Below the pieces are notes generated by a model that searched no databases, was not told the DNA's origin, and saw nothing but the letters and a program-made list of their open reading frames with translations. From Flaccisagitta enflata (taxonomy: Eukaryota), in assembly GCA_965153355.1 (NCBI GenBank), contig OZ231126.1, positions 27,714,001 to 27,778,000 of the forward strand: 64,000 nt of DNA. Direction: 5' to 3'. Numbering within the stretch: position 1 is the stretch's first letter; every line of letters begins with the position of its first letter. Below, one piece after another: positions 1-63,473 of the stretch. The translations under genes and the position numbers were made by a program.

Positions 1-505
1 ATGAGCTAAAATGCTACAAAACACCCTCATTGATGAGCAGCTATGCTTGTAAACATGTTTTCATATATTTGCATGCTCAAAAAAACTCAAATACACTCCT
101 TTATTGATTCTATTCAAAATCATGAAAAATTGAAAGAAAATTCAATATGAATTTTTCGTAAATAAATCTTTAAAAATTCATAACGCAAAAAATATTTGCT
201 GTAGAGCATTCTGCTTGGCGCCAAATGAAAGAGAATTATCACATTTACTTACCCTATCAATTTCATTCGAGGGTGCAATCAGCCCTATGAGTTCCCCAAC
301 TTCCTCATCAGAAAATAAAAGCCCTGTTTCTCTTGAATATGTCAAAAAGTTGAAGACTGACTTTTTTCATGATTAAAAAAATCTCAGCGTGAGAAAAAAT
401 TTGCCAGCAAGCTATTTCAAGTCCCAACACATCATAAAACACTAAAAACATGGCCTGATGAGGGGACATTGATGCCTGACTTTATAGGGCTAACGGGGAC
501 AGTGT
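1..505. mobile_element. Fragment of a dispersed repeat / non-autonomous DNA transposon
   Basis: Positions 1-370 are homologous to the sequence at ~9700-9757 joined to 13241-13555 (GATGAGCAGCTATGC..., GGCGCCAAATGAAAGAGAATTATC...). Confidence 0.6.
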
Positions 506-1164
506 GTGTCACCACGAACAGAAAATTTATTATTTCCCTTACTGACTTAGATGTAGCAGGTGAACAGCGCGATTGTAGCGTAAATAAGAGAAATGCGGTT
601 TTTACAGTGTGATGATTTTATTTTGGTCGTAGAAATAAATTGTCGTGAAGAAAGCGAAGGAAATGAAAGGTTTAAAAACGTTAGAGACGCGATAGAAAGC
701 TCGAAACAAAAGTACTAATGTAAGAAAGCAAATGTCTACATAAATGTCAAGTCTTGAATGTAACTTGTAGCCCTTTTGCGTGGTTCAAGCTTGACGATAA
801 ACAACATCACAGATATTGAATAGCGAAAAATGAACGCCTACAGCTAAAAAAAAAATTTAAAGAGAAAAAAAAGACTAGAAAAAAAATCAGATGGGGCAAG
901 ATATATCTGTGTAATATTCGGCTAATAACAATACGGTTCCAGAGTTGATCAAGTGGCATGCGACGAGTGTCACAAATCAGCCTTTGATAACGTAACAAAC
1001 TCGTTCACGCACGAATAAGAAGATTCTTCGGTTCGAGAGATTATGGCACGGTTATCTTTGGTTTCTTTGAATGAAATAAAAACAACTGCGTAATCCGAGC
1101 GTTTCGACAGGCTTTTAAAGCTCACACATGCGTGTAACGAAGCAAAACAAATGAAGCGCGAGCT

Positions 1165-4027
1165 TCATCCTTGAGCGCACATTCCTTCCCAAAGCATCGA
1201 GTCTTGAAAATGAACGAATTTGCCCTTTCTCGCGTCCATTGCGGCCTTTTCTAGACATTTCAAAGTCTTGACGTTCGTGTCCCAGAATGTGGCGGAGTGG
1301 TATGTCCGACCGTACTTGCCGCAGAAAGCCTCCACTCGCTCCCTCAGATCGCGCAAGCGATGGCGCGGCACGCGAGGGAATATGTGATGAGCTGGATACA
1401 AAGGAACAGATGAAAACGATTGATGAAATAGGCTTAAGGGAAACTTGGAGTGTTGTAATATGGCAGGTCGCAGGTGCATATCAAGATGTACGCTAGAATT
1501 ACAAATGTATTGGCATTATTCCCCAACCTGTTTGGAACTGAAGTCCGCCGTGAAACCAATCCATCCAGCGAGGACAATCGATATCGATGCAAGTTCGGAG
1601 CTGGTGGAGGAAATTATTGAAAAAATATAAGATTATTAAATCACTATCTCCGGTGAGGTTATCCTAAAAAAATCACTCACTTCGTTTCCATTCCATGTTT
1701 CATACCTGCGTGTCGAAAAATTGTTCATCGTCGTTTTTGTAAGTGATGTCCTCGAAAATCTCCATGGAAAAGTGGGAAAGGCAAATCTGCAAGAAGAATG
1801 ACAGAATCGGTGATTGGAGATCTTGCGCTTGTCGTATGTCGAAACCATTCTGACTTAACGTACCTGGACATGGAGAATACCAGCGATGGCGTGAGACAAG
1901 AGAAGGCATGAGATCAGCAATTTCCAAGTGAGACAGTGACTAAGCATCCACGAGACCCAACTCCAGTAGATGATGACACCGGCGATCTACAAAGAGTGAA
2001 GGATATGACACGTGAATGATTTTCTGTTCCCCGTGATTTGTGCAACTTCAATTATGTTTGCCCGATGGCCCTTTGAACAAACTTGCCTCGAGTTTTTTCC
2101 ACTCGGCGGTGTTTTTAATGAGAATGAGGATGTAGCCTTGAGCGTAAAGGTTGAATCTGATAAAGAGAGAATGAACTGATTATCTCGCCATTTTTATGAG
2201 CAGTAACTTTTTTTTAAATTTTCCGATCCTCGCATCTTTCTGAACAATGAAGCACCAATGATGGTCTCATTGATTCTCTGATTCGCTCTGCATTTGTGGC
2301 CATCGTGTTGCCTGCAGGCTATTTCGTATCCCCCCCCTTCCTCATTCTACCGTGGTAGATTTTTTACCTTAAATGGAAAACATGAGGACCCATCGTTGCC
2401 CTGTTATGAGATTTTATCGACAGACGTGGGTTGATAGACTTTGGTTCTAGCCATGCACGTGTTCGCTGCGCTGAGGTAAAAATTGTCAAATACCTGGCTA
2501 AAGCCATGACTGGATAGAAAAGGTAGTGTTGGTAGCCCACGAGGAATTTAGCGATGGGGTCGAAAGTGAGGACCCTGTTGTGGTACGTGCTCCACACGGA
2601 ATTGAAAAACTTGTTGGTGACGGCGAAAACCGGTAAATGTTGGATGTCTGGATCCGATTTGTACGCGTTGGGCACACTGTTAATAAGTGATTTGTAAACC
2701 AATATTTAAAATCACAGAATCCAAATCTTAGAAATTTCATGAACAATAGGATTCAATGAACCAGATTTAATGAACCATTAATGTGCTCAGTCCCAAACGT
2801 AATTACCTGTGATGGACATTGTGTGAATCTTTCCACCACGCCATTGAGATTCCAGTCATGCAATTCCCAACCATGACTCCATACATGGAGTCCAGGAATC
2901 TGTTGTGGAAAATGCAGGAATGGCCCGCGTCGTGGCCGAGGAATGCGGTTTGTTGAAGGTAAAGACCGTACATGATCGAACCAAATATCTGTGTAGAAGT
3001 TGTGGAAAGAATGGAATCAATTTGGTCTTTCCTCAGTTTTGGTGTGAAAATTGAAATGGTAAATTCTACAAGACCTCGATTACCCTACCTGAATCCATTC
3101 GTTCTGCATGGCTCTGCCTTTCAAGAAAAGGAAGATAGTCACAGCCAACAGGCAGTAAGATACCGCAGTTTTCATGATGTACCAGGAATAACTCGTTTCA
3201 AAGAAACCCTCGTCTTCAATCTCTTTTTGGAATTCTCTGCATGCTTGGACGTATTCAGACGTTTCTCGCTCTTTAATCTCGCCAATCTGGAGAAATCAGA
3301 GTTAAGCCCGAGTCAATATGTTGCTTATTTGGCTAATGCTGACCGTCTTTATGCGTGTCAGAGCCTAATGACAAACAAAGGCTAAACATGTAGATATGAC
3401 TTGTTAAGAAGAGAGTAAAAACTGTGCTTCTAAGAATACTATATGGATGACTTGGCACACCGATCTTGCGGAGATCGTATACATATGTAAACTTATCATG
3501 TTGACGGTTTACTTAAAACCGTATCAATTAATAAGTCACCTTCATGGTCTTGAGGTATTTAAAGGCAGAAGCTGGATGCATCTGCGTCATCAAATCGGTG
3601 GCGTCTCTTCCACCCAAACTGAGGATCACCGTCTTTCCACCTGACAAAAAAATGGGATAACAAAGGATTGTTTAATTTTGCAACTAAGTCTTTATTGAAT
3701 TTAGCAGAATACCAGCATTGCCTCACATCGTGATATTTTCTCTCTCTCTCTCTTACCTGGATGTCTGGGGATCCATTTTGTGACGTTGTAAACTGATCCG
3801 TCGACGATGAGCCAGCAATCGTCTTCTTTGTCGTGTTGCAGCACTTCTTCCGCCGTGTAATAAAACTGATCACGTGACTGACGCTGCGGAATCGCTTTCC
3901 GGTTTCTTGTAGACGTCACTTCATTAATTTCTTTGGCGCCGTCGTTGGGGACAACTTCCGTTTGGAGCTGGCTTCCTTGCAATAATTTTCCCGTGTTGTC
4001 CAAGTGGTCTAATGATGGCGGCGCCAT
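1165..4027 (-). CDS. Cytochrome b5-fusion desaturase of Delta-8 sphingolipid desaturase (SLD) type, 10 coding exons, ~502 aa
   Basis: Exons (minus): 4027-3757, 3640-3540, 3286-3089, 2988-2807, 2676-2494, 2156-2087, 1986-1864, 1786-1706, 1600-1528, 1391-1165. They total 1509 nt and all phases are compatible. Motifs: cytochrome b5 HPGG, His boxes HDAGH, HNVHH and QTAHH, plus DPDIQHLP, ARFNLYAQ, LHVQICLSHF and WMDWFHGGLQFQ. One intron (2086-1987) needs a GC donor. Probable 5'UTR intron at 4107-4035. Confidence 0.9.
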
Positions 4028-5417
4028 TACTAATCTGAAATGTAACGCAACGGAGAACGAGAATGAAATGAATGAATGAATTCGTTTGGAGCCACGGTGA
4101 ATCATACATATTTCTGTTTTGTTGTTGGGCCAAGCTGGCCGTTTTTCACGTCAGTACATTTCAAACTGAGAAAACACGCAATCGAACGATTTCTTTCATA
4201 ACAATAAAAGACGAGAGAAAAAAGAACGTAAAAAAGATCCCGACAATTTTTGAAAGCGAATAAAAAAAGCATTTTATAATAAAAAAATTGAAGAAGAATA
4301 AAAGCGTAAAAAACTGACAGGGTGTAGTCGTTCTCGCCCACCGTCCCTCGGTCGGGTGTGTCAATATGCAAAACATTAATCCCTGAGAGTATAACGCCCG
4401 GGCATCATGAGGTTACTCATTTAAATGCCTTCACCGTTTTTCTTATTTCAAATTTCGGTCATCATCCGTTTTTTCCAAAATCCCTGTTTTGCCCCTCATT
4501 TGCATAACGTTGTAATCACATTATCAACTTTTCATCCTTTGCCTTGTATAGTGGGGCATTCGAATCACTTTAAAATTCTGCCATCCTCTTTAAAGCTTCA
4601 CAGAGAAGTGTATTAGTTAATTGTATTAATTTCAATGAAATAGTAAAATAGTCTTTTTTGGGTAACAAATTTGTTTCTTGGAGAACGAGAGTGCAGACAT
4701 TGCTTTAGATTTCGATCGCGAAAAAAAACGGTTGCCTATGGAAATTTGGAAAAAGGAAAACGGTGATCGTTTTTGAATCGACAGCCCCATCTTGTGTCAG
4801 CGTTATGGTCTTAAATTCAGTCATCACCCGTATTTGACACACCTGAGTCCCTCGGTGTCCGTCTCCCAGCCAGCTGAGATTGTCTGGGTGCATGTGAGTG
4901 AATCGCGCGATATATTCTTTCTTTCTGCACTTCCTCCATTATTTCTCTTCTTCCTCCACACACACATAATCTCTTTTCTTCTTCCTCCACCGACTCTTCT
5001 CTCCACCCTCGTGCTACACAAAACCTTGCATTTGGGAACAAGCCGGTCGAATAAGATGCGGATTGGTTAACTCAGAGAAAAAGGATATGAAAAAGGCTCT
5101 GATTGGTCCACGGTAAATTTCGTTCTCAAATCGTCTATCCTTTTGTCTTTCCTTTTTCAGAAGTAAAGGGAGGAAGGCAAAGTGCAATAATTACCTTGGG
5201 CAATCTTTGGATACTGTCGTGGGTGCTTTGAGAGAAAATGTCACTCAAGACGCTGTGTGTTATTTCCACGACAGTATCGGACAAAACGTTGAGCTGTGAT
5301 CGCTGATTCAAATGCACTTTTTTTTTGTCCTCGACATACAGATTACGCCGAGGACTATGAGGGTTGTCACACCTTACTACACTACAGAATTTATGCGTGT
5401 ACCTAAGGGGGAAATTT

Positions 5418-5425
<8 letters not shown>

Positions 5426-5500
<75 letters not shown>
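5426..5500. repeat. (CT)n microsatellite
   Basis: Read directly from the sequence. Confidence 0.95.
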
Positions 5501-5501
<1 letters not shown>

Positions 5502-7035
5502 AAAGAGCAAAAAAAATTTTTTTTGGAAAGTTTTATTGGATATTTTTAGAAATTTTTTTTTTCAAAAAGAATTTTTTTTTTTTCGAAAAAAAAGTTTTCA
5601 TTTTAGAATTTTTTTTTACTTTCATCCATTCACCCTAATTTTTTGAGCTTTTAAGAATAAAATAATTGTTTTTTTTTCCTATCTTAGGTCTTTGTATTTC
5701 TTCATTGGATACTTCAATTATAGAAGTTACTGACCGACGGACCGACACGTTAAGTTATAGTCGCGTGTTCGCGACAAAAAGTGTAGCCTTAAAAGCTGAA
5801 ATGTGAATGTTCGACATCGAATGTTTTTTCGAGAGCTCAAGGAAAAGAATAGCTGGAATTGGGAGAGAAAAGTTTGAAAAATGGAGCTTTGTAGTTAAGA
5901 AGTTATTCTGTACTGAAACTGAAAGACAAAAAGTCGAACTTATTCTGGGATATAGTATGATGAAGCTAAGTGGTACTGTTACTACTGTAGGTCTCCTTTT
6001 AACATAGATAAAAGGGGCGTGCATACTGCATAACAAGTGATGACTTATAAATGCTATAAGATAGAATTAAATTTTGTCCGCAATTGTTAGTGAGTACTAT
6101 GGATGCACTTTATTTTAGCTATGGTCAAACGGAAATTGTGTGATGAAACTACAGAATAGAAATGCATTGGCACAGGTTTGAATGATGTTCTCGGTAGTTT
6201 TTTTTTATTGTTCTTGTTTATTACCAATGAATTAAGTCAATTTAGTTTATTATGATAGTGAAGTAAATTGTATAATTTAAACTGATAAAACAATCTTCGT
6301 TGATAGCGTTATGTCTAAGGACCTCGAGTCCACAGATTTAATAAAGAACATGCGTTGCTCTTTAGTCTCGCGCACGGTAAAGTTTTTTGCACTAATCTGA
6401 ATTTCACCTTTGCCCCCTTTTGGCGGAGAGCCCCAGAGAGAAATTAGTCATGACTCCTAAAGACACGTCCAATCACTCTGTGCACGCGACTCTAAACTTA
6501 GCTTTGTAGGTCCCTTCGTCAGTCTGTTGGCCTATTGTTCACATGGTTTTTTGACTAAGGTGGTTTTGCGTCTCAGGACCTACCCAAATAAGAACTCTCA
6601 GACCTCATTGCTCCTGCCCATTCACACATGTGGGATAGCCGTGTATCCGGCCTTTTTCAATCTCATTACAAACTCTTCATAAACTGAGAGCTAAAAAAGA
6701 GATTTGAGTATGCGTGGAGACAGAGGCACTTAAAATTGGGCGTTTGACATGAACCCCTTTTCGACCGCGATTGGGCTAGACTTATTTGGACCGAGGAATT
6801 TTCTGTTGATAAAATGGACCAAAGGCAGGACATTTTTAAGGTCATTAGCTATAAACATTGAACAAGGTCACTAACGACTCATTAGTTAGTCCGATCAAGC
6901 CATGAACATTTTGTCCATGTTCTCAACCGCTACTGGAGATTGCATATAAATGTGCCCTTTAACTACTGTTTGAAGCAAACATGTCTCTGTAACTACGATG
7001 ATCTAAACAACTCGATTTTTTCCTCCCCTTTTCAG

Positions 7036-21158
<14,123 letters not shown>

Positions 21159-24478: not shown

Positions 24479-27172
24479 ATGACGGAATCTTGTACGGAAG
24501 CGGCACCGGCGAAGGAGGTACTGCCGATGGCGACGACGAGTCAACCTCATCTCGCCAAACAGGATCTTTCCACATTAGACGTCAAGTCGTTGACGCCGCT
24601 GTCGCCGGAAGTGATCAGTCGGCAGGCGACCATCAACATCGGCACCATCGGCCACGTGGCTCACGGCAAATCCACCGTCGTCAAGGCGCTCTCGGGAGTA
24701 CAAACCGTCAGATTCAAGAATGAATTGGAAAAGAACATCACCATCAAGTTGGGTTACGCCAACGCGAAAATCTACAAGTGCGACGACCCGAATTTCCCCC
24801 GTCCCGCCGCTTACATCTCCGCTGGCAGTTCGAAAGAAGACTCCTTTCCTTGCGAGGGTTCCAAAGGACATTATAAACTCGTTAGACACGTCTCTTTCGT
24901 CGATTGCCCCGGCCACGACATTCTTATGGCCACGAGTGAGTAAAAGCTTTTTGAGCCATTCTTTTCCGGAATCACTACGCTTTGGGTTTTTCTTATTTCC
25001 ACTTGTCTTGCTGCCTGGTTTAGTTTGTCATTTCGGATCTTCTGTCCTTTTGTGATTCGTTTTCTGATTCCTTTCCCCATATTTCTATTCTCACCATTTT
25101 ATTTCCTTTGTCACCCATGTCACTACATTTCCTTTATCACTCCAATACCGTTGTCATTTCATTTCCATGTCATGTCATGTCATTCTCTTTCCCATGTACC
25201 TCCGTGTCCAATATGCTAAAATCCTCCATATCCCATGTAATACCATTTTCCATGTCATTCCATTCAACGACATTCAATAATCCTCCGTGATAGCCCATGT
25301 CACTCCATTTTCCTTGTCAATGTCAATCCATACTAGTTTTTTTCCCTATCAATCGATGTCATTCTGTTGTCCTTCCATTTCCCATGGCATTCCTTGAACC
25401 ATCACAGCTCTCACGATGTTTCATACTCCATTCCAGTTCCCATGTCAGTCCTTATTCTATGCAATTCCATTTTCCACGCCGACCCATTTCTTTTGGCATT
25501 CCATATCCAGTGTCATTCCTTTTCTTGTGCCAATCTATTTTCCATGCCAAACCAATTTCCATGCCAAACCAATTTCCATGCCAATCCATTTTCCATGCCA
25601 ACCCATTTTCCATGCCAATCCATTTTCCATGCCAATCCATTTTCCATGCCAATCCATTTTCCATGCCAATCCATTTTCCATGCCAATCCATTTTCCATGC
25701 CAATCCATTTTCCATGCCAATCCATTTTCCATGCCAATCCATTTTCCATGCCAATCCATTTTCCATGCCAATCCATTTTCCACGCCAATCCATTTTCCAC
25801 GCCAATCCATTTTCCACGCCAATCCATTTTCCACGCCAATCCATTTTCCAAGCCAATCCATTTTCCACGCCAATCCATTTTCCACGCCAATCAATTTTCC
25901 ACGCCAATCAATTTTCCACGCCAATCAATTTTCCATGCCAATCCGTTTCCTGTGCCAATCCGTTTCCCATGCCAATCCATTATCCACGCCAATCCATTAT
26001 CCCTTGTCATTTCATTTCCCTATTCCCATGCCAGTTCATTCCATTCTCTCGCTCTATTCCATATCTGGAACTATTACATATACCGCTCCATTGTATTCCA
26101 AACCTTATTATCCGTTCTACGTTATTCCATTCCATGAAATGTGTCTTGAATTGTTTTTCTTTTCCTCTACCTTCTCCGCCCTCTCCCCCTTCATCCGTCA
26201 GTGTTGAACGGCGCCGCGGTGATGGACGCCGCCTTACTGCTTGTCGCCGGTAACGAGCCTTGCCCGCAGCCTCAGACGTCGGAGCATTTAGCCGCCGTGG
26301 AAATTATGAAGTTGAAACACATCATCATCCTTCAAAATAAAATCGATTTGGTGAAAGAGTCGGAAGCCACCAAGCAGCACGAGGACATTCTGGCGTTCGT
26401 CAAAGGCACCGTGGCCGAAGGGCAACCCATCATTCCGATATCGGCCCAGTTGAAGTACAACATCGAAGTCTTGTGCGAATACATTACCAAGAAGATTCCC
26501 ATCCCGATCCGAGACTTTACTTCCGACCCTCGCCTCATCGTCATTCGATCCTTCGACGTCAACAAACCGGGAGCGGAAGTGGACGATCTCAAAGGCGGCG
26601 TCGCCGGTGGATCCATCCTACGCGGCGTCCTCAAAGTCGGCCAGGAGATCGAGATTCGTCCCGGCATCGTGTCGAAAACGGAAGAAGGCAAGTTGCTGTG
26701 CAAACCCATCTTCAGTCACATCGTTTCGTTGTTCACGGAGCAAAACGAGCTCATGTACGCGGTCCCCGGCGGCCTCATCGGCGTCGGCACGAAAGTGGAT
26801 CCTACTCTGTGCCGTTCCGATCGAATGGTCGGCCAAGTTCTCGGCGCCGTCGGGTCGTTGCCGGAAATCTACACGGAATTGGAAATCACGTTCTTCTTAC
26901 TTCGTCGTCTGCTCGGCGTGAGAACGGAAGGGGACAAAAAGGCCGCCAAGGTCCAAAAGTTGTCGAAAAATGAAATCTTGATGGTGAACATTGGTTCGCT
27001 GTCCAGCGGCGGAAGAGTTCTCGCCGTCAAATCGGACTTGGCCAAAATCGCCCTTTCCAGTCCCGTGTGCACCGAAGTCGGCGAGAAAATCGCGCTGTCA
27101 AGAAGAGTCGACAAACATTGGCGTCTCATCGGATGGGGACAGATCAGGAGAGGAGTCAAAGTGCCGCTTTGA
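24479..27172 (+). CDS. EIF2S3: Eukaryotic translation initiation factor 2 subunit gamma, two exons, ~475 aa
   Basis: Exons 24479-24935 and 26202-27172. The GT-AG intron splits the Met codon (A|TG) of [15 protein letters not shown]. Motifs: [41 protein letters not shown]. Confidence 0.97.
25530..26000. repeat. 17-bp minisatellite (CCATGCCAATCCATTTT)n in the eIF2-gamma intron
   Basis: Roughly 27 units read directly; CCATG units are followed by CCACG units; the flanks are degenerate. Confidence 0.95.
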
Positions 27173-27986: not shown

Positions 27987-30900
27987 ATGTGTCAAGTGGA
28001 CGATGGCGATCTTTACATGCGCAAAGACGCTCCGCGCGTGCGCAAAACCGAGTCACGTGACGAATGCGTGAAATGTTCCAGTACAGACGTCGTTATTCCT
28101 CATGGAGGACACGCGGCTTTGTGCCGTGTTTGCTTCCTCGGCAATGTCAACCATAAATTCCGCGCCACCGTCGCCAAATCTCAGGTCAGGGCCAACGTCG
28201 TTTGATCGATGGAATGAAAATTAGTTGCATCCCCCTATGACGGATCCGAGACTGAGGGAAAATAGGTTTTGTTTTTGTTCTACTATACCTCGAATGCAGC
28301 TCGGAAAGGTTTTGCCCTGATGGTAACAGCTCATAATGATGGGTCTGGGGGGATTGATAGATGTGAACAGATTGATAGATATTTTAGTTAATGTGGATTG
28401 ATATTGAATTAAACTGATGTGATTACAATTACATCTATCATAAGTTACGGGGAGGGTTTAATTGTATTTGTAGTAGTCATCGTCAGGAAAACCATTATTG
28501 GTTGCTTTCATGAGCTGCAACTCGTCCTTGTGTCTTAGTGTTTGTTGTATGAAAAAAAAATGAATTCCCTTCCAGGTATTGCGTCAAGGCGAGACTGTGC
28601 TGTTGGCGTATTCTGGGGGCGTCGCTTCGGGCGCCATGTTGTCGCTCGTCGCCGAAGGAGTTCGCGAAGGAACGGCCAAGAAACTGCGATTTCGTCCTGG
28701 CGCCATCGTTTACGTCGACGAATCGTCGGCGACGTCTGTTTCAAGTTCCGGTCTAGACGACGACGCGGCGGAGGAAAACTCGCGTCGTGAAATCCTCGAG
28801 TCCCTCTCTCGACATTGCAGGACGATATTTGGTCAGGAATCAGTTGATGGAGGGGAGGTAGAAAAACCACCCCCTTACTCGCCTTCACTCTTCGTGGCTC
28901 CGCTGGAAAATGCGATGGCGATTGGAGAGCACGGACGGTCAGATGATATGAATTCCTCTTCTCCTTCCTCCATCGTCGAACCCAACAGTCCTTCCTCCAA
29001 ACTCTTTGTTGACGTCATGGAAAAATCTCTCGGAGTTGACGCTTATTTGGCTCTGAAGCGTGATAAAAAAACGATTCAAAATCGACGCAGATTGTCGACG
29101 TTTCTGACGAGTCTACGATCGGCGACGTCAAAGATTCGAGCCGTCCAACTTATCAGGAGAAAGTTGATTAGTCGGATAGCGAAACTTCATGGGTGAGAGT
29201 GTGATGAAACTTGACTATAAGATTAGGATTATATGCGGTTCTTCTTCATCTTTAACAAGGCCGGATACACGGCTACCGAAGTCGCGTGCGGGTGGGCGGG
29301 GGCAGTGATGAAATGTGCTAACTTAAGCATTTTAGCAAGAGCAGTAAAGTAAAAGACGCCTAAAACGCTGAAAACGCTATAACAGCATGATGACCGACCA
29401 TCCGACCGACCGACCGACCGACCGACCGACCAACATAGCGGGTTGTAGAGTCGCGAGCACGCGACTAAAAACAAGATGGTATTTTAGGCAGTTTTGATAT
29501 CAGAGTGAATAAACTGAGTATGTTCTTTGTATGGCAAGGGTACTGATGTGTTTGGGTCTGCTGAGAGAAGAACGATATTGCGCTGCGATTTTAATCTTTG
29601 AATTTGTTTTGCAAAAAGATCGTTCAGAACAGAGTTTTCTGGGTTTTTGCATTTATGCAGTTTTGTAAACGTAATGGAGGGTATGTCTTCTTCACAAGTT
29701 CGGATCTAGCTGACATGACTACATCCGGCAGGCTTATGGTGCCTCAAGAACCTCCTTGATTTTCATTATGTGTATATCTCTATAGTTATGTGCACGTGAT
29801 GGAGGGCGTTTCGTCTTCACGCGTGGCGATCGAGATTATGACTGATTTGGCGTTGGGTCGCGGAACTCAAATTCCTAAAGACGTGGGGCTCGTCGATGAT
29901 CGATTTCATTCGTTAGACGGCGTCACTGTCGTCAGACCACTCAGGGAATTCTCCAACAAGGAAATCGTCGTCTACAATAAGTACGCTGACGTCTGAGTTA
30001 TCAACAGACTGACAGTCTCCTTAAACTGGTTAGCGCCGTTTAATTTTCGAATCTCATCTTCATCTTTTTTGCAGCCTTGCAAAGGTTCCTACGTTGGTTA
30101 TGACGAATATGGAAACTGGCGCCTCTCCCTTAACGAGCATCCAAAGGGCCACGGAGCATTTCATTTTGGGTCTACAAGCCGACTTCTCATCCACCGTCAG
30201 CACTGTTTGCAAAACGGGCGAGAAACTCGCTGGTAACCAACTGAAAGGTACGCGTCTTTCTTCATTGTTGCTTCTTGGGTATGTTTACTTACATGGGCTT
30301 CCTTGCCCTCAATACTAGCGTGTATCGCATGTGAGATGGTGATCTGGCTGGGCCCAAAAGCAGAAGACGCTTGAAATGTTTTGGTTGCGTGCTAGATCGA
30401 TAAAAGCGTCTTCCAACTTCTAAATTATCTCATAGGAAGACCAGCAACATCGGACGAAGGCGTAGAGCGTTGTTGTTTGTGTAGCACGACGATGGACGTG
30501 GCCGAGTCACCGCTGGATGATGCAGAATTACTACATAAGATAACGTCGCCATCTCTCGGCGAAAGCAACAGTGGCAACGGAAATTTCTTGGCCACCGCCG
30601 CACGTGCTCTTGACGTCACTACTGTTATCTCGCGAGCATCCTCCCATGCTGAAGAGGTATCATGTTTTTGTAACGTGTTTGCGGTTGACGCCCGTGCATT
30701 TTGTCGTCGTTAAAGTACCAAAACGTTGATAAACCGCACTGACGAAGACAAAATTGCGCCCTTAGTGTATGCCCCCTTTGTCAACAGCTGCGCCATTTGT
30801 CAACATCCGCGCCCTCTGTCAATGTCGGTCCAATTTGCCATTGTCGGTTCCATTTGTCAACATCAGTCCCATTGTCCGGCGTCAGTCCTTTTTGTCAATG

Positions 30901-33796
30901 TCTGTCCAATTTTTTATCAGTCACTTTTGCCATTGTCAATCCCATTTGACAATGTCAGTCCCATTTGCCATTGTCAGTCCCATATAAAAATGTCAGTCCC
31001 GTTTGTCAACATCCGTCCCATTGGTTGACATCAGTCCTTTTTGTCAATGTCTGTCCTATTTGTTGGTGTTAGACCATTTTGTTATCAGTCAGTTTTGCCA
31101 TTGTCAGTCCCATTTGCCATTGTCAGTCCCATTAGCCATTGTCAGTCCCATTAGCCATTGTCATTCCCATTTGACAATGTTATTCCCATTTGACACTGTC
31201 AGTCCCATTTGACACTGTCAGTCCCATTTGACAATGTCATTCCCATTTGACAGTGTCATTCCCCTTTGACAATATCATTCCCATTTGACAATATCATTCC
31301 CACTTGACAATATCATCCCCATTTGACAATATCATTCCCACTTGACACTGTCAGTCCCACTTGACACTCTCAGTCCCACTTGACACTGTCAGTCCCACTT
31401 GACATGGCCAGTCCCATTTGACAATATCATTCCCACTTGACACTGTCAGTCCCATTTGACACTGTCAGTCCCATTTGACACTGTCAGTCCCATTTGACAC
31501 TGTCAGTCCCATTTGACACTGTCAGTCCCATTTGACACTGTCAGTCGTATTTGACACTGTCAGTCCCATTTGACGACCTCAATCCCACATGACGACGTCA
31601 GTCCCATTTGACATTGTCAGTCCCATTTGACAACACCAGTTCCATTTGACATTGTCAGTCCCATTTGACGACGCCAGTCCCATTTGACGATGTCAGTCCC
31701 ATTTGACGATGTCAGTCCTTTTTGGACGTCAGTCCCATTGGACGATGTCAGTCCCATTGGACGACGTCAGTCCCATTGGACGATGTCAGTCCCATTGGAC
31801 GATGTCAGTCCCATTGGACGACGTCAGTCCCATTGGATGACGTCAGTCCCATTGGACGACGCCAGTTCCATTGGACGACGTCAGTCCCATTGGACGACGC
31901 CAGTCCCATTTGACGATGTCAGTCCCATTTGATGACATCAGTCCCATTTGGCGACGTCAGTCCCATTTGATGACGTCAATCCCATTTAATGATGTCAGTC
32001 CCATTTGACGACGTTAGTCCTATTTGACGACGTCAGTCCTATTTGACGACGTCAGTCCCATTTGACGACGTCAGTCCCATTTGACGACGTCAGTCCCATT
32101 TGACGACGTCAGTCCCATTTGACGACGTCAGTCCCATTTGACGATGTCAGTCCCATTTGACGACGTCAGTCCCATTTGACGACGTCAGTCCCATTTGACG
32201 ACGTCAGTCCCATTTGACGACGTCAGTCCCATTTGACGACGTCAGTCCCATTTGACGACGTCAGTCCCATTTGACGACGTCAGTCCCATTTGACGACGTC
32301 AGTCCCATTTGACGACGTCAGTCCCATTTGACGACGTCAGTCCCATTTGACGACGTCAGTCCCATTTGACGACGTCAGTCCCATTTGACGACGTCAGTCC
32401 CATTTGACGACGTCAGTCCCATTTGACGACGTCAGTCCCATTTGACGACGTCAGTCCCATTTGACGACGTCAGTCCCATTTGACGACGTCAGTCCCATTT
32501 GACGACGTCAGTCCCATTTGCCATTGTCTGTCCCGTTTATCTTATATAAATCCTCACCATTTAAATTTTTTGAAATCTGATTTAAGATTTGTATTCCTGG
32601 TGAAATTTCCAACCGTTTGATAGGTCACACTATATAATTTCATGAAAAAAATCTACATATTTTGGGCCACCATTGTTTTTATTATAACGGTAGCTTTGAA
32701 AAGGAAAAAAAAAAATTCATAAACCACAGAGTGACCTATCAAATGATTGGAAATTTTATCAGGAATAACGAATCTTGAGTAAGAATTTAAAATCATATAA
32801 ATGGTGAGGATTGATATAAGATATTCAAAAATTTTGAAATATTTAAGCGATTTTTGCAAAAAAAATTCTAGGGAAATTTGTTGAAAAGGTCATTATCAAT
32901 TCTCTTTCTTAAAATGTTCCGACTTGTGTAAGTCATTGCTATCGGGGAATTTTTTTAACTCTTATCCAATTAAGGCCCACCAGGGGGGGCCGGCAACCCC
33001 CCAAACATGCCGTAAGAATTAATTTTTTTCTTGATTCACACAAATTCATGTCCAACTAAGAAGAATCTGCTGACAAATCAATTCTTACGGCCTAGGAAGA
33101 TAGCTAAAATTGATTTTAGTAATATCAAAAATCAAGAAAACCAGATTGCAATGGCAATCGTCACAGAAGAGGTTGAGGAAACATTTTAGTGTTCTTAACA
33201 AAATGCAGCAAAGGATAAATCATCAATGTTTCACCACATGCTCAACTGCACTATGACACACAAAAATCGGGTTTCATTAGTAATCAAAGATTAAAAATTG
33301 ATCGTAGAATTTGCTGATAGTGACTTTTTTGGACTATATAAAGTTAAAAAATCACAACTAAGTGGCAGAATTTGTTTCATAGAAAATAGTCGTACCCTAA
33401 AAAGGCTCTTTAGACATTATCAGCCTCCTTCCTCCTTCCTCCTCTGAAGGCCCCCTGTGTTCGCGTTATTCTCAGCCAAAACAAGTTCCTTTCCTTCATT
33501 ATCTTACCAATTTCATTTTCCTACTTAAGCCTCCATTGGAAATCAACGGTGATCTCACCCAACAAAAATTCGAGTCGGCCGTCTCTAGAGCGCTTTGCTA
33601 CAGCTGCCGATTGATCTGTCAAGAAACCAACGAACGTGGCTCAAAAGGGAGTAAGACGACTGAGAATCATGAAGCCCCGACAGCTTCATCTTGCCTGGAC
33701 AATTTACCATCTTTCGTGATTGAAGGCGCTCAGCAAAGGGACAATCAAATCATTCTAAAGAATAAGATAAAAGATTTCCTGTTGGATAACACGTGA
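27987..33796 (+). CDS. CTU2: Cytoplasmic tRNA 2-thiolation protein 2, six exons, ~556 aa
   Basis: Exons: 27987-28184, 28576-29192, 29786-29980, 30075-30247, 30436-30656, 33530-33796 (1671 nt, phases compatible). N-terminus MCQV...CVKC...CRVCF...HKFRA, then VLLAYSGG, LALGRG, VVRPLR, LQADFSSTVSTV and LCYSCR, all matching animal CTU2. Confidence 0.92.
29661..29720 (+). pseudogene. Decayed partial duplicate of CTU2 exon 3 (pseudo-exon)
   Basis: After an AG acceptor at 29659-29660 the sequence reads FVNVMEGMSSSQVRI* in the same phase as the real exon 3 (YVHVMEGVSSSRVAIE), which starts 125 nt downstream. Confidence 0.7.
30770..32535. repeat. 19-bp minisatellite (GACNNNGTCAGTCCCATTT)n in CTU2 intron 5
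   Basis: Roughly 90 units; degenerate at the 5' end and near-perfect from ~32045 to 32520. Confidence 0.95.
32539..32822. mobile_element. Palindromic repeat fragment related to the core of the 19911-20507 element
   Basis: Inverted arms ATCTTATATAAATCCTCACCATTTA...TAAATGGTGAGGATTGATATAAGAT. Shares the TTTGATAGGTC / GACCTATCAAA core. Confidence 0.55.
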
Positions 33797-46077: not shown

Positions 46078-46660
46078 TGTGTGTTTTTTCTTCCCATGGA
46101 CTGTTTTAAAACCAGATATTGCTAATATTGCATAAAACAACCCATGCCATTCCTCTAAAAAAAGGTTTGCCGTCAAGGACTCCAAGGACCAAGATTTGCC
46201 TTCTTGGACTTCAGTGTTTAATGTTCAAGGTATGCCGTCATGGACTTTAAGGTATGCCGTCATGGACTTTAAGGTATGCCGTCATGGACTTTAGGGTATG
46301 CCGTCATGGACTTTAAAGTATGCCGTCATGGACTTTAAGGTATGCCGTCATGGACTTTAAGGTATGCCGTCATGGACTGTAAGGTATGCATGCCATCATG
46401 GACTGTAAGGTATGCATGCCATCATGGACATCAATTATTTTTTCAAATTAATTTTTTTGTTTAAATTTTGTTTATTTTTTTTTGAATTTTTTTTTCTTTT
46501 TTGAAATTTTTTTTTTTTTGAAATTTTTTTTTGAAAAATTTTTTTTGAAAAATTTTTTTTCAATTTTTTTTTTTTGGTGCATCTTCTCGAGTCGCGTTTA
46601 CGCGACGAGAAAGCTTCAAAAATTACAGTCCCCAGTCGGGGACTGTAATTTTGAAGCTTT
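45200..46660 (+). mobile_element. Long Helentron-like element carrying ~167-bp units, (CA)n and a 22-bp minisatellite
   Basis: 5' T-run + GTCCCCAACG...CGTCGGTGACTAT hairpin; 3' CAGTCGGGGACTGT...AAGCTTTTT. Internal units start at ~45434, 45602 and 45768. (GGTATGCCGTCATGGACTTTAA)n at 46229-46428. Confidence 0.6.
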
Positions 46661-46953
46661 TTTAGTTGCAGACACGCAACTCTATAAGAGGCTTTGTCCG
46701 TCCGTCGGTCCGTCAGTAATGATCGAGTTGGAAAGTGTGAAAACGCGCATTTCCGCCCCCGCCCACCCGTCCGCAACTGGTGGCCGTGTATCCGGCCTTG
46801 TTCTCTAGCACATTTTCTGTTGACCACTTAGTATGTCTATCACACTATCTGTCCTTCACACTGGCATGGAACACTGTCTGTCCGGCACATTGTTACTGTC
46901 TGGCACTCAGTCGGGCACGTTGTCTGGCACTCTGTTTTTCTATCGCTCTGTCA

Positions 46954-47045
<92 letters not shown>

Positions 47046-47556
47046 TGTGTCAACTTTTGGTTTTGGCAACCGGTGGAACGAGGAACCTTCGCGAGAGATG
47101 GGAAGTTTTGCAGTTGTCTCTTCTTTGCGTCGTTACTCGTTAATAAAAGATCGTAGAAAAAATGAATTGAAGAGGGAAAGAACGGCTCTGCTGAGGTGTT
47201 GATGGTCGAAGCTTAGCTTTGAGTTGGTAGAAGAAGATGGCTTAGAATAACTTGAGGTTTTCCAGTTAGAAGGTAGATTTTAGTGGTAAAGCTTCAGCCG
47301 GCGTCGCCGCCATTTCTTGTCTCGGTAAAATGGAATTAAAGACGACCAAAAATGGAAGCTCAATCTTTCGATTCTTAATGATGGGTTGCTAGACTGATAT
47401 TTCAATTTTCTTTCTCCAAATTGTTTGGGATTTTGGAAACCTCGGTTGTTTACATTGCCTTAATCTATCGAATCCGTTTCATATTTATCTCGGAAGAATG
47501 AAAAAATACACGCGTAGTTTCCGTTGTTTAGAGCCGCAACGCGATAGAGCAGGTAA

Positions 47557-48981: not shown

Positions 48982-63473
<14,492 letters not shown>

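Follow-up and report, generated by a model that had tools for sequence, protein, structure and literature searches.

A ten-exon desaturase gene on the minus strand

The stretch of DNA analysed here (referred to as the window in the rest of the text) covers 64,000 nucleotides (nt) of contig OZ231126.1, positions 27,714,001 to 27,778,000, in assembly GCA_965153355.1 of the chaetognath Flaccisagitta enflata. Close to its left end, on the minus strand, lies a gene coding for a cytochrome b5-fused front-end desaturase, with its ATG at 4027 and its stop codon at 1165-1167. We enumerated all frame-consistent minus-strand donor/acceptor pairs, and a single model retained every conserved block. Its coding part (1165..4027) consists of 10 exons and 9 introns and gives a coding sequence (CDS) of 1509 nt, which codes for 502 amino acids (aa). 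This model rests on the splice enumeration, on its translation, on RNA contigs and on P0263, a metatranscriptome protein described below. The introns are 77 to 337 nt long with a G+C content of 38%; eight are of the GT-AG type and one, intron 6, is of the GC-AG type (GCAAGT). An initial annotation of this DNA had described an intact 10-exon gene that is invisible as a long open reading frame (ORF), and our analysis bears this out, as the model is complete and the longest stop-free frame across 1165-4027 reaches 149 aa. All six peptide strings quoted in that annotation are present in the translation (GHDAGH at residue 208, GISMAWWKDSHNVHH at 236, DPDIQHLPVFAV at 259, ARFNLYAQ at 311, LHVQICLSHF at 373 and DIDCPRWMDWFHGGLQFQTAHH at 409), and so is HPGG (residues 89 to 92). 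The histidine boxes HDAGH, HNVHH and QTAHH begin at residues 209, 246 and 426, respectively.

All exons lie on the minus strand. Exon 1 (3757..4027) codes for a disordered N-terminus (residues 1-50) and for the N-terminal half of the cytochrome b5 domain, as far as HPG of HPGG; its translation matches Pfam Cyt-b5 (E = 3.8×10−11), and its residues 5-50 have a predicted local distance difference test score (pLDDT) below 50 in the AlphaFold2 model. Exon 2 (3540..3640) codes for the second half of the b5 domain with the invariant H112 and also matches Cyt-b5 (E = 1.4×10−4). Exon 3 (3089..3286) contributes the linker and the first long hydrophobic helix (residues 157-183), identified by a hydropathy peak at 161-179 and by the AlphaFold2 helix. 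The first two histidine boxes, HDAGH (2920-2934) and HNVHH (2809-2823), are both in exon 4 (2807..2988), which matches Pfam FA_desaturase (E = 10−9). In the translation of exon 5 (2494..2676) we found the DPDIQHLPVFAV block, whose D259-Q263 is invariant in a 60-sequence alignment. Exon 6 (2087..2156) codes for ARFNLYAQ and is followed by the sole GC-AG intron, whose joint 1986/2087 was seen in an RNA contig. According to translation, hydropathy and alignment, exon 7 (1864..1986) codes for hydrophobic helices and ends in GILHVQ with the invariant H374, while exon 8 (1706..1786) codes for ICLSHF with the invariant H381. The phase-1 intron 9 interrupts histidine box 3: exon 9 (1528..1600) codes for WFHGGLQFQT, where the box starts, and exon 10 (1165..1391) for AHH of QTAHH, the C-terminal region and the stop codon. 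The joint 1391/1528 is present in an RNA contig, and exon 10 is, with exon 4, the second of the two exons that match FA_desaturase on their own (E = 1.1×10−6).

Domains, invariant residues and fold of the product

Pfam analysis of P0263 revealed the FA_desaturase domain (PF00487) at 113.2 bits (cut-off 29.7) and the Cyt-b5 domain at 86.4 bits (cut-off 23.7). Invariant in the 60-sequence alignment are H89, P90 and G92 of HPGG, H112, H209/D210/H213, H246/H249/H250, D259-Q263, H374, H381 and Q426/H429/H430, and all heme ligands and all di-iron ligands are among the invariant residues. Along with an HX3H and an HX2HH box, the protein has a third box in which a Gln of the front-end type replaces the first His (QX2HH).

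The AlphaFold2 model computed from the same alignment reached a pLDDT of 88.2 and a predicted template modelling score of 0.84, with residues 5-50 disordered and long helices at 157-183, 187-212, 311-350 and 356-374. On the Kyte-Doolittle scale, which measures hydropathy and is not a topology predictor, peaks occur only at 161-184, 307-325 and 359-377. We compared the model with 48,161 representatives of the PDB using VIA-align. The desaturase domain (residues 141-486) matched 8xks_K with a Z score of 23.1 (316 aa, root-mean-square deviation (rmsd) 3.6), FtAlkB with 12.8 and SCD1 with 8.9; the SCD1 match came from VIA-align and does not appear in the Foldseek listing. The b5 domain matched cytochrome b5 (Z = 13.1, rmsd 1.6, 81 aa) and is the only part with solved relatives in a sequence search of the PDB. 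NCBIfam gave just far sub-threshold matches to bacterial DesA/DesB. Both domains above their cut-offs, the three histidine boxes and the di-iron desaturase fold confirm the b5-fusion desaturase that had been proposed from the letters: the protein is a cytochrome b5-fused front-end desaturase.

The gene is transcribed, spliced and trans-spliced to a chaetognath leader

We compared positions 1-6000 of the window with four public runs, namely a marine metatranscriptome (X5), an oligo-dT marine transcriptome (X13), a DNA run (X1) and a polyA RNA run labelled as the same organism (X18). In contigs of X5 and X13, introns 1, 2, 3, 5, 6, 8 and 9 are spliced out at exactly the modelled joints, and intron 4 is bridged by consecutive pieces of one 1128-nt RNA contig, so that eight of the nine introns were seen in RNA. 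Among the matches listed for X5 and X13, no RNA contig bridged intron 7. P0263, a protein of 502 aa from a Joint Genome Institute (JGI) metatranscriptome, spans the intron-7 junction and aligns with the model without gaps at 498 of 502 identical residues; for P0262 the count is 497 of 502.

The X18 run yielded only 13 partly fitting reads (95-99% identity), which do not document expression of this exact allele. Nine X18 reads follow exon 4 at 95-99% and then continue, from the boundary at 2807, into a clearly different exon-5 sequence. This points to a paralogue or to a related species with the exon 4/5 boundary in the same place.

At its 5′ end, the 1128-nt contig from X5 leaves the genome match at 4033, immediately after a tttcag acceptor, and carries 25 further letters. 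The genomic 5′ untranslated region is thus reduced to 6 nt (4028..4033, minus strand) and the acceptor AG lies at 4034-4035 (minus strand; genomic sequence tttcag followed by ATTAGTA and ATG). The reverse complement of the 25-letter extension had no match in the 64-kb window with up to three mismatches allowed. Of these letters, 24 are positions 13-36, that is, the last 24 nt, of the chaetognath spliced leader SL2.0, an identification based on a single contig of one run; the 25th, a G, can be assigned to the leader or to the genome. Table 3 of Marletaz et al. 2008 (PMC2481426) gives SL2.0 as the dominant spliced leader of Spadella cephaloptera and of Flaccisagitta enflata. Trans-splicing thus joins SL2.0 to the desaturase mRNA 6 nt 5′ of its first ATG, at an AG acceptor. 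Since the leader is joined at an acceptor present in the genomic DNA, the gene belongs to the chaetognath nuclear genome, is expressed and does not derive from contamination. The match of the leader to chaetognaths also led us to reject a copepod origin. We therefore consider it almost certain that this is a real, expressed front-end desaturase gene of a chaetognath.

The segment belongs to the host genome

It is extremely improbable that the desaturase segment is a contaminant or an assembly artefact from outside the animal genome. Such an artefact would account for one X1 DNA contig (depth 145) that joins position 871 to 4354 and bypasses the whole gene. However, the shorter side of this joint amounts to 20 letters of A-rich sequence, and the depth of the flanks is not doubled; the joint is probably a repeat artefact, the alternative being a haplotype that lacks the gene. 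The RNA-confirmed spliceosomal introns, the chaetognath leader on the mRNA and the even DNA depth also argue against an artefact. The X1 word depth is 128-226 over the bins of the gene and mostly about 98-197 in its unique flanks, and one 1453-nt DNA contig covers both exons and introns. The stretch is also present in marine metagenomes and metatranscriptomes of several studies.

In the stretches 1-600 and 4200-5000 of the window, the X1 word depth rises to 10^4 to 10^6, compared to about 160 for unique sequence. Both flanking stretches consist of dispersed repeats that have a very high copy number in this genome.

The composition of the gene resembles that of its neighbours. Its CDS has a G+C content of 0.48 and a G+C content at third codon positions (GC3) of 0.60, compared to 0.48 and 0.63 for a septin exon and to a GC3 of 0.70 for an exon of the gene coding for eIF2-gamma; relative codon usage (RSCU) of the desaturase CDS correlates with that of eIF2-gamma with r = 0.63. 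The septin exon (15893-16267) is 12 kb away and the eIF2-gamma exons lie at 24.3-27.2 kb in the window. For the large eIF2-gamma exon, identity was 86% with vertebrate proteins, 80-84% with insect proteins and 69-78% with named plant, fungal and algal proteins, in a comparison limited to proteins of 561-2000 aa and thus to over-long or fused gene models. The initial annotation had argued against contamination from the introns and from linkage to metazoan genes. That conclusion is now firmer through the trans-splicing, the flank-like DNA depth and the host-like GC3, and the linkage stands, with the septin exon 12 kb off and the eIF2-gamma exon closest to animal proteins.

Relatives of the desaturase and their annotations

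We searched for relatives with exon 5 alone, which returned 17 proteins, and with P0002, a full-length relative, which returned 3074 proteins at E ≤ 10−10. The best 120 of these 3074 were examined, and the names and counts given for this search refer to them. The full-length unnamed transcript proteins P0002, P0004 and P0005 are 84%, 75% and 75% identical, respectively, to the model, and two partial transcript proteins 81% and 76%; beyond these, identity does not exceed 45%. At least five diverged transcript lineages (75-84%) retain all three histidine boxes, and HPGG is found in the three that are full-length; P0003 and P0006, truncated at the N-terminus, do not include the b5 region. A HMMER pass over 1.84 billion cluster representatives gave 556 proteins at E ≤ 10−30, with one close 50% cluster and the next at 45-47%. 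A scan of metagenome contigs with P0263 returned 16 loci that match the b5 domain only (29-42% identity) and no genomic relative of the desaturase.

The named animals among the best 120 are Trichoplax sp. H2, the bryozoan Watersipora subatra and the cnidarians Nematostella vectensis, Desmophyllum pertusum and Acropora muricata; the Trichoplax, cnidarian and Watersipora proteins are 41-44% identical to P0002. This genome is not alone in carrying such a gene, since relatives at 40-45% occur in Placozoa, Cnidaria and Bryozoa. The 120 also include many protists and green algae, among them a Klebsormidium protein named 'Sphingobase-D8 desaturase'; P0263 is about 40-41% identical to this protein and to one from Chara. 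The Trichoplax sp. H2 match is named 'Delta(8)-fatty-acid desaturase', and JGI names include 'delta8-fatty-acid desaturase' five times and plain 'fatty acid desaturase' four times. One 90% cluster bears both JGI names 'delta8-fatty-acid desaturase' and 'sphingolipid 8-(E)-desaturase', which therefore amount to the same label. None of the 120 is a FADS-named protein, and none is from a vertebrate, a nematode or an arthropod (copepods included) or is a named mollusc Fads. The affinity claimed earlier, to sphingolipid Delta8 desaturases (SLD) and not to FADS1/2, is thus upheld at the level of annotation, as the nearest named relatives bear sphingolipid-Delta8 names. In a protein-language-model Atlas, the nearest cluster is an unnamed one of b5 desaturases in which Chordata is the commonest known phylum, SLD-named plant clusters take ranks 2-3 and a chordate cluster named 'Fatty acid desaturase 1' takes ranks 17 and 24; we treat these rankings as leads only, the first of them bearing on the statement in the initial annotation that vertebrates lack SLD.

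The third histidine box divides the family. It has no Glu in the whole supported clade described below, in fungal-like sequences and in Chara (QTAHH, QVAHH, QTIHH, QVIHH, QVVHH), and it reads QxEHH in cnidarians, Trichoplax and Klebsormidium. A box 3 that lacks the Glu as in fungal enzymes had been noted before and is recovered here, with QTAHH in the chaetognath protein and QTIHH and QVIHH in fungal-like ones.

The chaetognath proteins group with a bryozoan protein

We inferred three trees: a FastTree of 127 rows, with the model, P0263 and the proteins of at least 370 aa from the exon-5 and P0002 searches (the fragments P0001, P0007-P0011 and P0013 were left out); a quick mixture-model tree of 57 rows; and a careful IQ-TREE of 33 rows, made of the model and 32 selected proteins, three fungal-like representatives among them. 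The trees were built without functionally characterised SLD, FADS or copepod Fed sequences. One and the same group was recovered in all three. It unites the chaetognath clade, a trio of sequences filed under gregarines and a Watersipora-bearing clade, with a support of 96 (SH-like or Shimodaira-Hasegawa approximate likelihood ratio test, SH-aLRT) in the first two trees and an ultrafast bootstrap (UFBoot) of 98 and an SH-aLRT of 99 in the 33-row tree. The trio consists of EukProt sequences filed under Selenidium and Siedleckia and of one unnamed transcript. Selenidium and Siedleckia are gregarine parasites of polychaetes, and their sequences could possibly be host transcripts. The Watersipora-bearing clade has a second subgroup, and one of its 90% clusters includes an MMETSP transcript. 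The EukProt species labels among the look-ups for the sister groups are Selenidium, Siedleckia, Mantamonas and Incisomonas.

Four further proteins, P0007-P0010, are N-terminal fragments from European Nucleotide Archive genome contigs of 40-380 kb. They are about 50% identical to the chaetognath clade, their counterparts of exons 1-6 form a single open frame, and two of them carry HPAG, not HPGG. In the quick tree they are sister to the chaetognath clade (SH-aLRT 89).

A candidate Delta8 sphingolipid desaturase, probably of vertical descent

We favour a reading in which the gene codes for a sphingolipid Delta8 desaturase inherited from an early animal ancestor, and we give this whole explanation, Delta8 activity on sphingoid bases and vertical descent included, a probability of about one half. 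The pre-mRNA loses its nine cis-introns and receives SL2.0 six nt upstream of the start codon, and the product is predicted to be a membrane enzyme of the endoplasmic-reticulum type. Its b5 domain, with HPGG and a second heme histidine, is predicted to deliver electrons to a di-iron centre bound by HDAGH, HNVHH and QTAHH within the membrane desaturase/hydroxylase fold, and this centre to abstract two hydrogens from a lipid chain. As a model, this b5-to-di-iron mechanism is well supported, being the standard one for the class. The enzyme would belong to the SLD-like branch of the front-end desaturases, not to the FADS1/2 branch, and would place a double bond at Delta8 in the long-chain base of ceramides or in sphingoid bases, giving bases of the 4,8-diene type. 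An early animal ancestor would have had the gene, with vertical inheritance down to chaetognaths and losses in vertebrates, insects and nematodes. We prefer Delta8 activity on sphingoid bases because of how the nearest relatives are annotated, of the sequence blocks in common and of the presence in marine animals of Delta8 bases that need an enzyme. In sea-cucumber cerebrosides, 4,8-sphingadienine is described as a main base (PMC8228791), and 4E,8E,10E-d18:3 and its 9-methyl form are described from starfish sperm and squid nerve (PMC2444003).

Several points weigh against this reading. Sequence in this family is a poor predictor of substrate, and every 'SLD' label among the relatives is an automatic annotation; in addition, the JGI name 'acyl-lipid Delta6-acetylenase / (9-3)-desaturase' stands on 2 of the best 120. 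Surm et al. 2018 (PMC6010785) found Fad clade A of cnidarians together with the Delta6 fatty-acid desaturase of borage, and copepods have proven front-end desaturases for polyunsaturated fatty acids (PUFA) outside the FADS clade according to Kabeya et al. 2021 (PMC8080000). As to descent, the backbone of the trees is poorly supported, with cnidarians, Trichoplax, green algae and fungal-like sequences on separate branches, and cnidarians and Trichoplax fall apart from the chaetognath clade in the free 33-row tree. The supported clade itself is not demonstrably all-animal, as it contains sequences of two gregarine transcriptomes and the MMETSP group. In an approximately unbiased (AU) test, in which the animal group was chosen after the tree was known, holding the 8 named animal rows together against 10 named non-animal rows cost 10.7 log-likelihood (lnL) units (p-AU = 0.294). 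A single animal origin with vertical descent is not rejected by this test, nor is it demonstrated.

The points on function would also fit a front-end fatty-acyl desaturase of Delta4, 5, 6 or 8 type that acts on acyl-CoA or phospholipid PUFA in the long-chain PUFA (LC-PUFA) metabolism of chaetognaths and not on sphingoid bases, including a Delta5 enzyme for non-methylene-interrupted fatty acids. We regard this as rather unlikely. The architecture and histidine boxes of the protein are the same as in PUFA front-end desaturases, and the Delta6-acetylenase/(9-3)-desaturase names and the cnidarian relatives, treated as Fads in PMC6010785, speak for it, as do the functional non-FADS front-end desaturases of copepods (PMC8080000) and the warning from sea urchins, in PMC11750391, that sequence alone mispredicts function. 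Nevertheless, the function-bearing names of the nearest matches among the best 120 are mostly of the Delta8-sphingolipid type, and named copepod, mollusc and vertebrate Fads are absent from them. Moreover, a fungal-like cluster named 'sphingolipid 8-(E)-desaturase' has both the DPDIQHLPVFAV block and a box 3 without Glu in common with the protein.

It is less probable still that the protein is a sphingolipid desaturase with another regiospecificity or with a double function, such as Delta10, Delta8/Delta10 giving 4,8,10-trienes, or a distal position like Delta14Z. The marine-invertebrate 4,8,10-triene bases treated in PMC2444003, given there as lacking known enzymes, would be accounted for in this way. 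FADS3, a b5-fused front-end enzyme of vertebrates, desaturates sphingoid bases at Delta14Z (PMC11765627), and a long branch sets the chaetognath clade apart, whose identity to sequences beyond its own 50% cluster does not exceed 47%. However, nothing positive indicates a shifted position, and the nearest annotated relatives are of the Delta8 type, as in the reading that we favour.

With regard to origin, the gene may instead have been acquired horizontally from an alga or protist, in the ancestry of chaetognaths or of a larger group of spiralians, and have gained its introns, its trans-splice site and host codon usage later. The nearest sequences outside its own clade among the best 120 are only about 45% identical and many of them are algal, the supported 12-row clade takes in the MMETSP-bearing group, which also has whole ORFs on contigs of 10-26 kb, the free tree does not recover animals as monophyletic, and Kabeya et al. 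(PMC8080000) consider that horizontal gene transfer cannot be excluded for the copepod front-end desaturases. Against this, a bryozoan sequence lies inside the clade at 98/99, and animal monophyly costs just those 10.7 lnL units. The gene is also old in its lineage, with at least five orthologue lineages at 75-84% and an exon 4/5 boundary conserved in the diverged X18 transcript, its composition is host-like, and it has relatives in Placozoa, Cnidaria and Bryozoa. We thus hold horizontal acquisition to be unlikely. A transfer of the bdelloid-rotifer type was considered as well and found no support.

Other features of the window

Within the intron that separates the two large eIF2-gamma exons lies a tandem array (25300-26150, plus strand) that codes for repeats of about 17 aa in three frames. 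Long (GA/CT)n microsatellites, along with some (CA)n, occur at 5400-5510, 8600-9000, 46950-47100, 57200-58000 and 59200-59700, and minisatellites at 55100-55450 (18-nt unit, 'DPATQS') and 60430-60850 (39-nt unit). The open frames 16966-17385 (minus strand), 46452-46808 (plus strand) and 7549-8019 (plus strand) have the motifs FLVADT.LY..C.SVG.SV and AVYPALF in common and, judging by these motifs, look like copies of one dispersed element; the two that were scanned against Pfam, 16966-17385 and 7549-8019, gave no match. The long frames 28564-29196 and 33401-33796, both on the plus strand, had no Pfam match at E ≤ 0.001. The first of them begins like a PP-loop ATPase (LLAYSGGVAS) and may be CTU2/NCS2-like. 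A scan of the whole window against Rfam gave no match.

Comparison with known desaturases and significance

The chaetognath protein resembles plant and fungal SLD in its N-terminal cytochrome b5 domain with HPGG, in its HX3H, HX2HH and QX2HH boxes and in the DPDIQHLP block, and it has in common with fungal-like sequences a box 3 without Glu. It differs from plant and fungal SLD in its location in an animal genome, its nine introns, its trans-spliced mRNA and its own long branch. The proteins of Trichoplax, of cnidarians (Fad clade A) and of Watersipora have the same architecture and boxes, and the Watersipora protein falls in the same clade; cnidarians and Trichoplax differ by QxEHH, while the chaetognath and bryozoan groups lack the Glu. 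FADS1, FADS2 and FADS3 are likewise b5-fused front-end desaturases, of which FADS3 acts on sphingoid bases at Delta14Z (PMC11765627), but no FADS name occurs among the best 120, which places the chaetognath protein outside their clade only indirectly. Copepod Fed1-5 (Kabeya et al. 2021, PMC8080000) are also non-FADS enzymes of a marine invertebrate and of unclear origin; they differ in being proven PUFA Delta4/5/6/8 enzymes, a comparison made by their published description and not by sequence.

A passage of Surm et al. 2018 (PMC6010785) states that b5-fused sphingolipid desaturases had not yet been identified in metazoans and that the cnidarian ones are perhaps the first. In Ribes-Navarro et al. 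2023, 'sphingolipid desaturases from crustaceans' serve as the outgroup of a tree of front-end desaturases. In the open literature, outside which subscription journals largely fall, we found no functionally characterised animal SLD and no mention of a chaetognath SLD. A literature search on sphingolipids of chaetognaths gave mostly unrelated papers and nothing on their sphingoid bases. The gene described here is a well-documented new member of a known, uncharacterised animal branch of a known enzyme family and does not represent a new type of system.

The full-length, RNA-verified chaetognath CDS offers a clean construct for testing in yeast. The gene adds a bilaterian phylum to the distribution of the family and bears on the inheritance and repeated loss of SLD in animals. 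Work on LC-PUFA synthesis in aquatic animals can also easily mislabel genes of this kind as 'Delta6 Fads'. The chaetognath/bryozoan clade and the fungal enzymes, with their Glu-less box 3, might form a subgroup with a stereo- or regiochemistry of its own. More tentatively than for the gene itself, we propose from sequence comparison that the family could be the ancestral eukaryotic SLD and the missing sphingoid-base Delta8 desaturase of animals, retained in placozoans, cnidarians, bryozoans and chaetognaths and probably in further phyla of the sea, with losses in vertebrates, insects and nematodes. If this is true, these enzymes would catalyse the first committed step towards the 4,8-diene, 4,8,10-triene and 9-methyl bases of marine-invertebrate sphingolipids.

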